Virus record (IMG/VR): IMGVR_UViG_3300033153_007310
Length of the DNA stretch: 17,786 nt
Reading direction: 5' to 3' (one strand)
DNA from: a virus
Positions 10,484 to 13,781 of this stretch are shown here, one piece after another. The first letter of the stretch is position 1, and every line of letters begins with the position of its first letter. The position numbers and the translations under genes were made by a program. The notes beneath the pieces are model-generated. The model saw only the letters and a list, made by a program, of their open reading frames with translations, was not told where the DNA came from and did no database searches.

Positions 10484-11239
10484 ATGCCATTATTAAATAC
10501 GTCTGATGCGGATATGGAAACCATCAAGATTCCCGGTGGTGGGAATTTTCAATTTTCAGCCATACGGCCCGAAATGTTAGGGGCAACCGAGTATACGTTG
10601 GCAACCATTGTTATTGATGTAACCGGAAGTGTTCAGTCTTTTGCCGCCGCGCTGTTAGACTGCCTCAAAACTGTGGTGGAATCTTTACAGAAAAGTCCAA
10701 GGGCTGAAAACCTCATGCTGAGGATCATCGTGTTTAACAATGAAGTTATCGAACTTCACGGGTTCGTTCCGCTAAAGGATATAGACTTGAACAGCTATTC
10801 CCCGTTCAATCCTTTCGGAATGACTGCTTTATTTGATGCGACCTATTCTGCAATCGGAGCTGCCAACAAATATGGCAAAACCCTTGTTGACCAGGATTTT
10901 GACGTCAATGCATGTAGCTATATCATTACCGATGGTGATGATAATGCAAGCACCGTAACTCCATCCGCAATCAGTAAAAAGATCAACGAAGGAGTTCAAG
11001 GCGAAATTCTTGAATCAAACCAGACCATATTGATCGGACTCATTGAGAAAAATGACCCGAGTAATGTAAAACCGAAACTGGAAAAATTCAAAAAAGATGC
11101 CAATCTCGATGCTTTCATTGATGCCGGTGAAGCAACCCCACAGAAACTTGCGAAATTAGCAGGTTTTGTTTCCCAAAGCATCAGCAGTCAAAGTCAGGCT
11201 CTCGGTACCGGTTCCGCAAGTGTTCCGCTTGTCTTCTAA
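10484..11239 (+). CDS. von Willebrand factor A (vWA) domain protein, TerY-like
   Basis: A MIDAS motif is present: VIDVTGSVQS (D-x-T-G-S). Downstream are a Thr (…FGMTALFDAT…) and IITDGDDN. There is an AAAGGAG SD. The composition is GC-rich. Confidence 0.65.
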   Translation: MPLLNTSDADMETIKIPGGGNFQFSAIRPEMLGATEYTLATIVIDVTGSVQSFAAALLDCLKTVVESLQKSPRAENLMLRIIVFNNEVIELHGFVPLKDIDLNSYSPFNPFGMTALFDATYSAIGAANKYGKTLVDQDFDVNACSYIITDGDDNASTVTPSAISKKINEGVQGEILESNQTILIGLIEKNDPSNVKPKLEKFKKDANLDAFIDAGEATPQKLAKLAGFVSQSISSQSQALGTGSASVPLVF

Positions 11240-11245
11240 TTAAAT

Positions 11246-11271
11246 GCTCCCCTATCTTCGGGTGGGGGAGC
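11246..11271 (+). other. Stable stem-loop with a UUCG tetraloop (RNA stabiliser or processing/termination signal)
   Basis: GCTCCCCTATC [TTCG] GGTGGGGGAGC forms an 11-bp stem including two G·U pairs, with loop TTCG. It lies 7 nt after the vWA stop. No U-tract follows; the next sequence is CACAACCAAGGAT-ATG. Confidence 0.45.
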
Positions 11272-11283
11272 ACAACCAAGGAT

Positions 11284-12105
11284 ATGATTATGTTAAAAGC
11301 CATAGATCATTTTTTTAAAATCGGATCTACTCATAAGGTATGTGAAGATTATATAATATCACCTTATGTAATTATAGCGGATGGTTGTTCATCTTCTGAT
11401 AATACTGATATGGGAGCTAGAATTTTGGCACATTCAGCTCTAAAGTATCTAACACAATTACCTTTTAATGATAATAAAGATCAAGTTAACCGATTCGGAC
11501 ATACTGTTATACAAAATGCTGATTCAGTTGCCCACAAACTAAATATTGATAGGTCATGTTTAGATGCTACATTAATAGTATTAACTGTGTTCAAAAATGT
11601 AGCTCATGTTTTTATGTTTGGTGACGGAGCCGTTATAGAGATTACGGACGATGATGTATCAGTTTTACATGAAGTTACTTTCAATAGAAATGCCCCGTAT
11701 TACTTAAGTTATAAAATTAACCATCATCATTGGGAGTATATACAAACTGTTGAACATATGACACGCGTTCGAACCGGATATTCAAAATTTCTAGGACAAC
11801 AACTTGATTATGAAGTATCATGTCAATTAGAAATTGCTGATTTTGAATTTTCTTACTGGCGTTTTAATTTAGACAATTCAAAAGGTATTCTTATATGCTC
11901 TGATGGTATCAGTTCTTTCATACATCCTAATGGAACTCCTGTCGCAAATGTAGATATTATAAATGAAATTACCAACTTCAAAAACATCAATGGTGAATTC
12001 ATCAAAAGGAGAATGGGTAGTAAAAAAGGAGCACTAAATACATTAGCTGTACAAGGAATAACCCATTATGATGATCTATCAATAGGAGGAATTATAAAGC
12101 AATGA
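11284..12105 (+). CDS. PP2C-family Ser/Thr protein phosphatase
   Basis: PP2C metal-binding motifs appear in order: IIADGCSSS…ARILAHSA (DGxGG-like), FMFGDGAVI (GDS-like), ILICSDGISSF (SDG), and THYDDLSIGGI (C-terminal DD/DN motif). An alternative start is the ATG at 11290, 9 nt after the AAGGA. Confidence 0.65.
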   Translation: MIMLKAIDHFFKIGSTHKVCEDYIISPYVIIADGCSSSDNTDMGARILAHSALKYLTQLPFNDNKDQVNRFGHTVIQNADSVAHKLNIDRSCLDATLIVLTVFKNVAHVFMFGDGAVIEITDDDVSVLHEVTFNRNAPYYLSYKINHHHWEYIQTVEHMTRVRTGYSKFLGQQLDYEVSCQLEIADFEFSYWRFNLDNSKGILICSDGISSFIHPNGTPVANVDIINEITNFKNINGEFIKRRMGSKKGALNTLAVQGITHYDDLSIGGIIKQ

Positions 12106-13781
12106 AATATTTAGTTAAAGGTCGAAAAGTTGACCTAAAGCAAAATGACTTTGTTGCTAAAGGAGGCGAAGGAAGTGTTTTTCGGCAAGGGGAAAAAACA
12201 TTTAAAATTTATACCGAACCGAAGAAAATGATCCCTGTTGGAAAAATACAAGAACTGTCTAAATTAAAAAAAGGTAACATCATAAGACCTCAGGAAATTA
12301 TCTTTTCTACTAAAAAGAAACCTGTAGGATTTACAATGAAATGGGTTAATGGAATTCCTATATGTAAAATGTTCACAAATGATTTCAGAAATCGGCAAGG
12401 AATAACCGAAGATATGGTAATTGCCTTAGTCGAAGAAATGAAATTAACTATTGATTTTATTCATAAACAGAAATGTTTAGTAGTAGATGGTAATGAATTG
12501 AATTATATGGTGAACCAGAAATTCACAATTCCATATTTCATTGATGTTGACAGTTACCAAACTCCGTCTTTTAAGGCAACAGCAATAATGCCATCAATTC
12601 GAGATTATCAAGCGAAGATACTATCTCCTATCACTGATTGGTTTTCATTTGCAATCATAGCATGTCAACTTTTTATCGGAATTCATCCATTCAAAGGAAA
12701 ACATCCAGATTATAAAAAGAAAGACATGACAAAAAGAATGATTGAAAATGTATCAATCTTCAATTCAAAGGTTCGAGTTCCTCCACCAACCAGAGATTTC
12801 AACTTAATTCCTATCCATTACAAAGAATGGTTCTATTCATTATTTGAAAAAGGAATAAGGATGTTACCCCCTGATATGCCTGGTGATGTAATTTTCTCTC
12901 AAATTCAAACTATCATTATAAAAAGTACTGATAACTTTGAAATAAAAGAGTTAAGATCATTCATTGGAGATATTTTATATTATTCAGTTAGATATGGAGT
13001 TCATATTACCAAAACAAAAGGGACTCTATATATCAATCATTTACAATATAAAATAAGTCCTGATGTTGAGGTTCTCTTAACAGAGTCGGAACATGTTTTA
13101 ATCAAAATCGAAAATGAAAGACTTCAGGTTAAAAGTTATGCTAATAAAGATCTAGTGGTTCCTGATCTAGCATGTCAAGAATTTATGATTGTTGATAACT
13201 GTTTATATCTCAGAAATAAAGGTAGTTTCACTGAAATAAATGTACTTGAATTAAAAAATAAAATTATATTTAATACCAAAGAAACATGGAGTATAATGCC
13301 GAATTCAAGTCATATGTTTAGTGGAGTTATATATCAAGATGTTCTTGGTATACCCTTTATATGTATCCCTATTCCTGATCCTTCTGGAATGGGCTCATTT
13401 CATATATATAAGGTTCCCGAGATAGAAGGATATAAGGTTATTGATGGAAAATATAAATCCGGTATTTGCGTTCTGATTGGTTATAAGAAAGGTGAATACC
13501 ATATGTTTATATTGAAATTCGGAACTAAAATGGGGTCCTATTCATGTAGAATAATAAATGATATAAACAACCCTGTTATAAATTTTACGGTTCTTGATAA
13601 TGGTCTCGTTGTTTTAATGAACGATGATACGCTTGAAATATTCTCATATGATCCTTCTAAAGGAGATGTTAAAACATTCAATGATCCAGATGTTAATTCA
13701 ACAAACAAATTATTTAGTGAGGGAATGAGAGTGCTGTTTGCAAAGGGCGACAAACTCTGTTCTCTAAAAGTCAAAAAATAA
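12102..13781 (+). CDS. Ser/Thr protein kinase-like protein (N-terminal kinase fold plus ~300-aa C-terminal domain of unknown function)
   Basis: The start ATGA overlaps the PP2C stop, indicating coupling, and there is an AGGAGGA SD. A Gly-rich loop is AKGGEGSVF. A β3 Lys is in TFKIY. A catalytic-loop-like stretch is HKQKCLVVDGNELN. A DFG-like motif is FIDVDSY. An αF-like stretch is WFSFAIIACQLF. Confidence 0.55.
   Translation: MKYLVKGRKVDLKQNDFVAKGGEGSVFRQGEKTFKIYTEPKKMIPVGKIQELSKLKKGNIIRPQEIIFSTKKKPVGFTMKWVNGIPICKMFTNDFRNRQGITEDMVIALVEEMKLTIDFIHKQKCLVVDGNELNYMVNQKFTIPYFIDVDSYQTPSFKATAIMPSIRDYQAKILSPITDWFSFAIIACQLFIGIHPFKGKHPDYKKKDMTKRMIENVSIFNSKVRVPPPTRDFNLIPIHYKEWFYSLFEKGIRMLPPDMPGDVIFSQIQTIIIKSTDNFEIKELRSFIGDILYYSVRYGVHITKTKGTLYINHLQYKISPDVEVLLTESEHVLIKIENERLQVKSYANKDLVVPDLACQEFMIVDNCLYLRNKGSFTEINVLELKNKIIFNTKETWSIMPNSSHMFSGVIYQDVLGIPFICIPIPDPSGMGSFHIYKVPEIEGYKVIDGKYKSGICVLIGYKKGEYHMFILKFGTKMGSYSCRIINDINNPVINFTVLDNGLVVLMNDDTLEIFSYDPSKGDVKTFNDPDVNSTNKLFSEGMRVLFAKGDKLCSLKVKK

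Follow-up and report, generated by a model that had tools for sequence, protein, structure and literature searches.

What do a von Willebrand factor A (vWA) protein, a PP2C-type phosphatase, and a eukaryotic-like Ser/Thr kinase control when they are encoded side by side on a phage-like contig? This question is raised by positions 10484 to 13781 of IMGVR_UViG_3300033153_007310, a complete Joint Genome Institute (JGI) metagenome contig of 17,786 bases, referred to here as the window. The initial annotation recognized the three genes as a TerY-P-like phosphorylation switch and offered host takeover or a defense/abortive-infection-like role as its purpose. We find that the conserved unit is a tetrad, in which a previously overlooked PncA-like gene is linked to the triad as tightly as the triad genes are linked among themselves. 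We propose, with a probability of roughly 0.55, that the triad serves as the regulatory core of a PncA-vWA-PP2C-kinase unit within a Preiss-Handler nicotinamide adenine dinucleotide (NAD+) salvage set of huge phages and some bacteria. The Preiss-Handler route leads from nicotinamide to nicotinate, nicotinate mononucleotide (NaMN), nicotinate adenine dinucleotide (NaAD), and finally NAD+.

The three annotated genes are real, and their open reading frames (ORFs) exactly span the interval first given for them. All lie on the plus strand, as do nearly all genes of the window. The vWA gene (10484-11239) encodes 251 residues. Sequence searches of Pfam, NCBIfam, and PDB returned no match for its product, so the fold was settled by structure prediction alone: an AlphaFold2 (AF2) model with a pLDDT (predicted local distance difference test) score of 90 and a predicted template modeling (pTM) score of 0.89 matched vWA/integrin I domains in Foldseek with probability 1.0 (ITIH1 vWA, integrin I, TRAP, and ArnB). 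Its metal ion-dependent adhesion site (MIDAS) is complete; across 112 vWA proteins, no ungapped sequence lacks any of D45-x-[S/T]47-x-S49, T114, and D150. The vWA family comprises 1607 clusters.

For the other two proteins, the original assignments held up in profile searches. The PP2C gene (11284-12105; 273 residues) matches Pfam PP2C_2 with an E value of 5.8e-11 and 42.8 bits against a cutoff of 24, and the metal-binding residues D33, D114, D207, and D263 are conserved in 113 to 116 of 117 homologues. Its profile matched PDB entries 6ihl and 5f1m ("phosphorylated protein phosphatase"), which we take to be Staphylococcus aureus Stp1-type PP2C, and aligned with Escherichia coli PphC (hhalign probability, 87.2%; E, 3.9e-6). 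The kinase ORF (12102-13781; 559 residues) has conserved active-site residues, and its profile aligned with E. coli YegI over 240 columns (hhalign probability, 91.8%; E, 7e-7), a match that reaches beyond the catalytic core. The ATGA overlap between the kinase start (ATG at 12102) and the phosphatase stop (TGA at 12103-12105) was confirmed, as was the large C-terminal domain of the kinase. A disordered linker (residues 260 to 271) splits the kinase domain (residues 1 to 255; 12102-12866) from this C-terminal domain of about 285 residues (residues 273 to 557; 12918-13772), which is all-beta with about 29 strands, has AF2 pLDDT values of about 85 to 95, and carries a weak internal repeat signal only. 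The kinase family, 1505 clusters in all, is always full length and includes the C-terminal β-domain.

Are these genes inherited together, and with what? Through the kinase we collected 164 loci, called their ORFs, and searched these with profiles built from the window proteins. Single-sequence locus scans gave nothing; alignment-based scans gave loci, with the kinase alignment returning 78 from assembled bacterial or archaeal genomes and 80 from viral contigs in IMG/VR, many of these exceeding 200 kb. The kinase was called as an ORF in 155 of the 164 loci, PP2C in 139, and vWA in 125, in keeping with the expectation that the triad is coconserved in related genomes. An isochorismatase-family gene, at 9676-10458 in the window, was called in 123, and every other window gene in at most 10. 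A locus counted as evaluable when its sequence extended 6 kb or more upstream of the kinase (118 loci; 76 viral and 42 genomic). All three partners, PncA, vWA, and PP2C, were found in 98 of them (68/76 viral and 30/42 genomic), and the order PncA-vWA-PP2C-kinase was kept in 91 of these 98. Because its co-occurrence and order match those of the triad, we assign the 9676-10458 gene to the unit as its fourth member. PncA-vWA is in fact the tightest pair, with a median gap of 31 to 44 nt and with insertions in viral loci rarer than at the vWA-PP2C or PP2C-kinase junctions. In the window, the gaps are 25 nt (PncA-vWA), 44 nt (vWA-PP2C), and −4 nt (PP2C-kinase). Contigs of huge phages carry the module, and so do finished bacterial chromosomes, among them those of Capsulimonadaceae and Desulfonema ishimotonii; at least the latter copy lies in an ordinary chromosomal context. 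Most of the copies derived from IMG/VR are on phage contigs.

The product of the fourth gene (260 residues, plus strand) is, judging from its sequence features, a PncA-type nicotinamidase. It matches Pfam Isochorismatase at 27.8 bits against a cutoff of 27 and scores 31.5 bits with the NCBIfam equivalog model PRK11609, far under the cutoff of 174. A profile of 20 PncA-like family members matched only nicotinamidases in the PDB, the best being yeast Pnc1 (1.6e-17). The WPPHC metal-ligand motif aligns to Mycobacterium tuberculosis PncA, and each catalytic residue (D9, K151, and C201) and each metal ligand (D52, H54, and H118) is kept in 109 to 112 of 113 sequences. All four proteins of the unit thus keep their catalytic or metal-binding residues and are predicted to be active.

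The wider neighborhoods place this enzyme in a pathway. All other ORFs of the 164 loci were clustered, and the representatives were scanned with Pfam. The nicotinate phosphoribosyltransferase PncB (NAPRTase, 3.5e-72) is present in 48 loci, often right after the kinase, and the ADP-ribose-responsive regulator NrtR, with a Nudix domain and the NrtR winged helix (NUDIX plus NrtR_WHD), in 45, often right before PncA. Glutamine-dependent NAD synthetase, NadE (NAD_synthase plus CN_hydrolase), occurs in 25 loci, an NMNAT-like adenylyltransferase (CTP_transf_like) in 14, NADAR (Pfam NADAR) in 13, and Tpt1/KptA (PTS_2-RNA) in 9. At least one further NAD gene lies within 8 kb in 76 of 152 loci. In 12 viral loci the NAD genes are interleaved with the cassette itself, for example as PncA-vWA-PncB-NadE-PP2C-NMNAT-kinase (L117, L122, and L137), and a typical bacterial string reads NrtR-PncA-vWA-PP2C-kinase-PncB (L070, L075, L079, and L084). 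In 26 of 70 genomic loci and 16 of 82 viral loci, NrtR is encoded immediately next to the cassette, with pncA and pncB also present.

Composition and RNA structure divide the unit in two. In the window, GC content and GC content at third codon positions (GC3) are 0.435 and 0.43 for vWA, 0.315 and 0.18 for PP2C, and 0.307 and 0.23 for the kinase. The initial annotation had noted that the vWA gene is richer in GC and took this as a hint that the triad was assembled from pieces of different origin. The observation stands, and the mosaic origin was rejected: GC3 of PncA plus vWA exceeds that of PP2C plus kinase in 93% of 110 loci, irrespective of genome GC (mean, +0.073; window, +0.23), and because the offset recurs across loci it points to different expression levels instead. 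A hairpin that lacks a U-tract lies in the gap separating vWA from PP2C (11245-11272, plus strand); it has a minimum free energy of −22.3 kcal/mol and a z-score of −3.9, and 0 of 200 shuffles folded as well (z-scores here are from mononucleotide shuffles). In relatives, structure is seen in the 60 nt that follow the vWA stop (median z, −2.7; n = 32) and not in those that follow the PncA stop (median z, +0.3; n = 71). Taken together, the GC3 split and the hairpin after vWA suggest an abundant PncA-vWA pair and modifying enzymes kept at a low level.

What might the kinase and phosphatase act on? The C terminus of the vWA protein is a conserved, Ser-rich helix and tail (residues ∼219 to 251) that reads ...FVSQSISSQSQALGTG..S.PL.F. 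Serines S230, S232, S234, S237, and S246 are conserved at 92 to 100% among the 112 vWA sequences, whose identity falls to ∼28%. A vWA protein that is not kinase linked (P0362, fused to a domain of the o359 family described below) lacks the Ser-rich tail, and in the archaeal vWA protein ArnB the C-terminal domain is multiply phosphorylated by eukaryotic-like protein kinases (PMC6509490). On these three grounds we propose the tail as the likely phospho-acceptor, a point less certain than the overall reading. The C-terminal helix of integrin I domains is allosterically coupled to the MIDAS, and phosphorylation of the tail could therefore switch ligand binding.

We suggest the following mechanism. 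The kinase, whose C-terminal β-domain is presumed to serve as a sensor or docking domain, would phosphorylate the invariant serines of the vWA helix and tail, and PP2C would reverse the modification. The phosphorylation state would alter MIDAS-dependent partner binding, and the partner would most likely be the adjacent nicotinamidase, since no other pair in the unit is as tight as PncA-vWA. The switch would thereby gate the rate at which nicotinamide freed by NAD+ cleavage is recycled, with PncA and vWA probably made in larger amounts than the PP2C and kinase acting on them. On a phage, NAD+ would be rebuilt during infection, either countering host NADase immunity or feeding NAD+-consuming phage enzymes such as Tpt1. 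Still more specifically, in huge phages and several bacterial phyla, the YegI/PphC-type kinase-phosphatase pair and the MIDAS vWA protein might sense NAD+ attack or its breakdown products and turn a dedicated nicotinamidase on or off, a suggestion that we make tentatively and regard as rather doubtful.

Several observations weigh against the NAD+ salvage reading. Half of the 152 loci are without a further NAD gene within 8 kb, and a few giant sulfur bacteria encode the kinase by itself. The 17.8-kb window itself holds no PncB, NadE, NMNAT, or NrtR, so its own NAD+ link would be drawn from the PncA-like gene and from the neighborhoods of relatives. Nicotinamidase activity is predicted, and the PncA-like subfamily carries an insertion of ∼25 to 45 residues relative to solved enzymes. 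The C-terminal domain of the kinase gave no Pfam or PDB sequence match that would identify its fold, and E. coli YegL gave no detectable match to the vWA profile (hhalign probability, 7.7%). That the vWA tail is the substrate of the kinase and PP2C is a guess from conservation and one analogy.

The window copy, moreover, may not be fully functional, because its PP2C gene and the accessory gene after the kinase, which we call o359, carry in-frame deletions relative to a sibling sample's 22.8-kb contig (L004). The two contigs are 99.99 to 100% identical over all shared segments, more than 15 kb, apart from three clean indels. At 11361/11362 the window is missing 9 codons of a variable PP2C loop, and at 14679/14680 it is missing 13 o359 codons, which include residues at least 90% conserved in that family. 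The third indel, at 4082-4242, is present in the window only; its 161 nt hold the ribosome-binding site, the start, and the first ∼45 codons of a major vault protein (MVP)-like gene. All three could be strain variants or assembly artifacts. No PncB or NadD/NadE was seen in the 22.8-kb contig either.

Other explanations of the locus have to account for the same linkage. The triad could be a stand-alone antiphage defense or superinfection-exclusion switch of the TerY-P type that senses infection and signals by phosphorylation, with PncA as an incidental neighbor. Its gene content and order are indeed those of yegL (vWA)-pphC (PP2C)-yegI (kinase) in E. coli K-12, with homologous kinase and PP2C proteins; the Desulfonema locus adjoins a transposase gene and an AAA_15/SMC_N gene; and protection against T7-like phages by TerY-P-like modules has been reported (Gao et al. 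2020, as cited in PMC11090510 and PMC7699616), which makes the earlier description of their function as experimentally unresolved out of date. The near-obligate PncA linkage and the frequent interleaving with NAD biosynthesis genes and NrtR are hard to reconcile with such a role, as are the prevalence of phage contigs among the IMG/VR copies and a kinase C terminus that is neither an OB fold nor a zinc ribbon. No nuclease or other effector recurs among the neighbor clusters. We therefore consider a defense switch improbable. PADLOC had no hit for the vWA, PP2C, and kinase proteins, a negative that is uninformative because the E. coli YegL/PphC/YegI control likewise gave no TerY-P hit. The same linkage and the same lack of a recurrent effector speak against host takeover, in which the kinase, like T7 Gp0.7, would phosphorylate proteins of the host (for example, transcription or translation factors). 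Phage-like contigs, and the RNA repair and nucleic acid genes around the module in the window, would suit that role; the same cassette, complete with its own phosphatase, nevertheless sits in bacterial chromosomes under NrtR-type regulators, and the kinase family, always full length with its β-domain, is coinherited with PncA and vWA. Takeover appears very unlikely. Neither purpose offered by the initial annotation is thus the best reading of a module whose company is NAD+ salvage genes.

Two further alternatives accept the PncA linkage and interpret it differently. In a variant of the preferred reading, the vWA protein might be a metal-loading or assembly chaperone for a metallo-nicotinamidase, comparable to MoxR-type vWA partners, with the kinase and phosphatase tuning the chaperone. 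The closeness of the PncA-vWA pair, the high GC3 common to both genes, and the coexistence of a D-H-H metal site in PncA with a complete MIDAS in vWA would all fit. This explanation, which we judge unlikely, does not account for the conserved Ser-rich tail better than phosphorylation does, and no AAA+ (MoxR-like) partner recurs in the neighborhoods; to our knowledge, ordinary PncA enzymes need no chaperone. Alternatively, the PncA-like enzyme might act on another amide, such as a nicotinamide-containing nucleotide or an immune signal, and the module would then be a phage counterdefense that destroys or senses that molecule. An insertion conserved in the subfamily separates the metal ligands H54 and H118 by 64 residues, and on phages the module stands beside NADAR and Tpt1/KptA, which handle ADP-ribose derivatives. 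All nicotinamidase catalytic and metal-binding residues are kept, however, the PDB matches are to nicotinamidases only, and the recurrent partner PncB consumes nicotinate, the product of a nicotinamidase, with NadE and NMNAT-like genes for the steps that follow. A different substrate thus seems a poor prospect, and we retain NAD+ salvage under phosphorylation control as the preferred reading.

Downstream of the kinase, 11 nt past its stop, the window carries o359 (13793-14872, plus strand), a 359-residue accessory gene of a small, uncharacterized family (315 representatives among 1.84 billion proteins) linked to the module in the window's clade. Both the vWA gene and o359 have an AAGGAG-type ribosome-binding site ahead of them (AGGAG in the latter). 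Within the 164 loci, o359 is confined to 10, where it follows the kinase or lies between vWA and PP2C. It had no match in Pfam, PDB, or PHROG, and an exhaustive profile search retrieved its own family only. The gene shares no locus with PncB, and the idea that it encodes a divergent PncB was rejected (hhalign probability, 0.2%). In two family members, from other phage-like contigs, the o359 domain is fused to a TerY-like vWA domain (Pfam VWA, 7.8e-9) that matches the vWA protein of the module (hhalign probability, 97.2%); o359 probably works with vWA proteins.

Some genomic loci depart from the common arrangement. The kinase is encoded without PncA, vWA, or PP2C within 8 kb in Thiomargarita, Beggiatoa, and relatives (L016, L019, L021, L022, and L032), and Beggiatoa alba encodes a vWA protein 56% identical to that of the window away from the kinase. 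In 14 genomic loci (L031, L036, L038, L039, L041, L043, L045, L047, L048, L053, L055, L057, L069, and L071), a ∼740-residue protein with an N-terminal methyltransferase domain and a long C-terminal part follows the kinase in the usual position of PncB; those whose source was checked are Pyrinomonadaceae, Blastocatellia, or other Acidobacteriota metagenome-assembled genomes (MAGs). The vWA and PP2C proteins are encoded in one ORF in two Armatimonadota/Chthonomonadaceae MAGs (L040, 5885-7966; L052, 6101-7939), an arrangement that could reflect true gene fusion or else an assembly or frameshift artifact and that was not used as evidence.

The rest of the window bears on the kind of element that carries the module. 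From left to right, the genes ahead of the module are the 853-residue MVP-like gene, a small Cys-rich ORF, RNase H, RtcB, and two small ORFs, which lead to the isochorismatase-family gene; after the triad and o359 come several small ORFs and an ATP-dependent DNA ligase. RNase H and RtcB (together 7066-8885, plus strand; Pfam RtcB RNA ligase, 5.4e-114) thus flank the module on one side and the DNA ligase (16173-17303, plus strand) on the other, and the region looks like a nucleic acid repair and counterdefense neighborhood. Genes for RtcB and a CCA-adding enzyme recur beside the module in a few viral loci. The MVP-like gene (4109-6670, plus strand), two genes upstream of RNase H and RtcB on this phage-like contig, encodes a protein homologous to eukaryotic major vault protein (Pfam Vault_3, 2.2e-6, and MVP_shoulder, 4.1e-22) and has a GC3 of 0.40, about twice that of the backbone. 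The MVP-like and RtcB genes were considered as module members and rejected, as each co-occurs in just 4 to 6 of the 164 loci (MVP-like, 4/164). At the 5′ end, a minus-strand ORF (1-2256) runs off the window, with 751 residues here and 829 in the sibling contig; its sole match is a marginal one to a PHROG minor head protein (E, 3.6e-4), and it is possibly a structural gene. The window contains no tRNA and no Rfam RNA. No near-identical phage record was found, and the GenBank matches to the kinase are three uncultured "huge phage" records only, of 462 to 595 kb, at 27 to 35% identity. The initial placement of the triad on a mobile or phage-like element is plausible, and the support for it, PHROG matches of neighboring genes together with relatives in IMG/VR and in huge-phage GenBank records, is indirect.

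Triads of vWA, PP2C, and kinase are widespread, and here one is tied to a single enzyme of known chemistry and to a single pathway. If the more specific suggestion, a switch that senses NAD+ attack or its breakdown products, is true, the long-enigmatic TerY-P/YegIKL class would for the first time have a defined pathway and substrate, and phages would have a third route to rebuild NAD+ in the face of NADase immunity. The linkage also suggests that large phages possess regulated, deamidated NAD+ salvage besides NadV-based routes, which is relevant to how phages evade NAD+-depleting immunity, for instance by TIR and SIR2 effectors. In the full-text literature that could be searched, with most subscription papers outside its reach, no paper linked nicotinamidase, PncB, or NrtR with a vWA-PP2C-kinase set, and an earlier description is possible.

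How, then, does the module compare with known systems? The TerY-P triad (Anantharaman et al. 2012, as cited in PMC11090510) is the nearest relative, and the resemblance first drawn to it holds for the order vWA-PP2C-kinase, for the homology of the kinase to YegI and of the phosphatase to PphC, and for a vWA protein with a complete MIDAS; it does not extend to the limits of the unit, which includes PncA. The C-terminal fusions described for TerY-P kinases are a zinc ribbon in CoCoNuT-linked versions or an OB fold in the defense version of Gao et al. 2020 (PMC11090510). The window kinase instead has its ∼285-residue all-β domain, without YegI-type membrane segments, and the module is joined to a nicotinamidase, set within NAD+ salvage genes, and largely phage borne, with no Ter genes nearby. 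JGI applies the label YegL to about 20 of the 120 listed vWA homologues, and E. coli YegL itself gave no detectable match to the vWA profile. For these last reasons, the β-domain and the lack of a match between YegL and the vWA profile, we treat the module as a variant of the TerY-P/YegIKL class and not as a plain member.

The Sulfolobus network of ArnA/ArnB, ArnC/ArnD, and PP2A offers a parallel for the proposed switch, with an intact-MIDAS vWA protein, eukaryotic-like kinases, and a resetting phosphatase, and ArnB is among the structural matches of the vWA model. It differs in its archaellum output, its FHA reader, its use of PP2A and not PP2C, and its lack of a metabolic enzyme partner. Bacterial NrtR-controlled NAD operons share with the module the flanking NrtR gene together with pncA and pncB; we know of no described NrtR regulon that includes a vWA-PP2C-kinase set, and none appeared in literature searches. 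Among phage systems, NARP1 and NARP2 are reportedly NAD+ reconstitution pathways, attributed to Osterman and colleagues in 2024. Like the module, such pathways use phage enzymes to rebuild NAD+ from nicotinamide and often lie beside NADAR or Nudix genes. Two broad surveys, one on NAD+ systems of phages and one on jumbo phages, cover only NadV, NadM, and NadR salvage of KVP40-like and jumbo phages (PMC9503650 and PMC7824862) and mention neither PncA nor the vWA-PP2C-kinase triad. Compared with these NadV-based routes, the module would stand apart in combining the deamidated Preiss-Handler enzymes PncA, PncB, NadE, and an NMNAT-like protein with a kinase/phosphatase/vWA switch.

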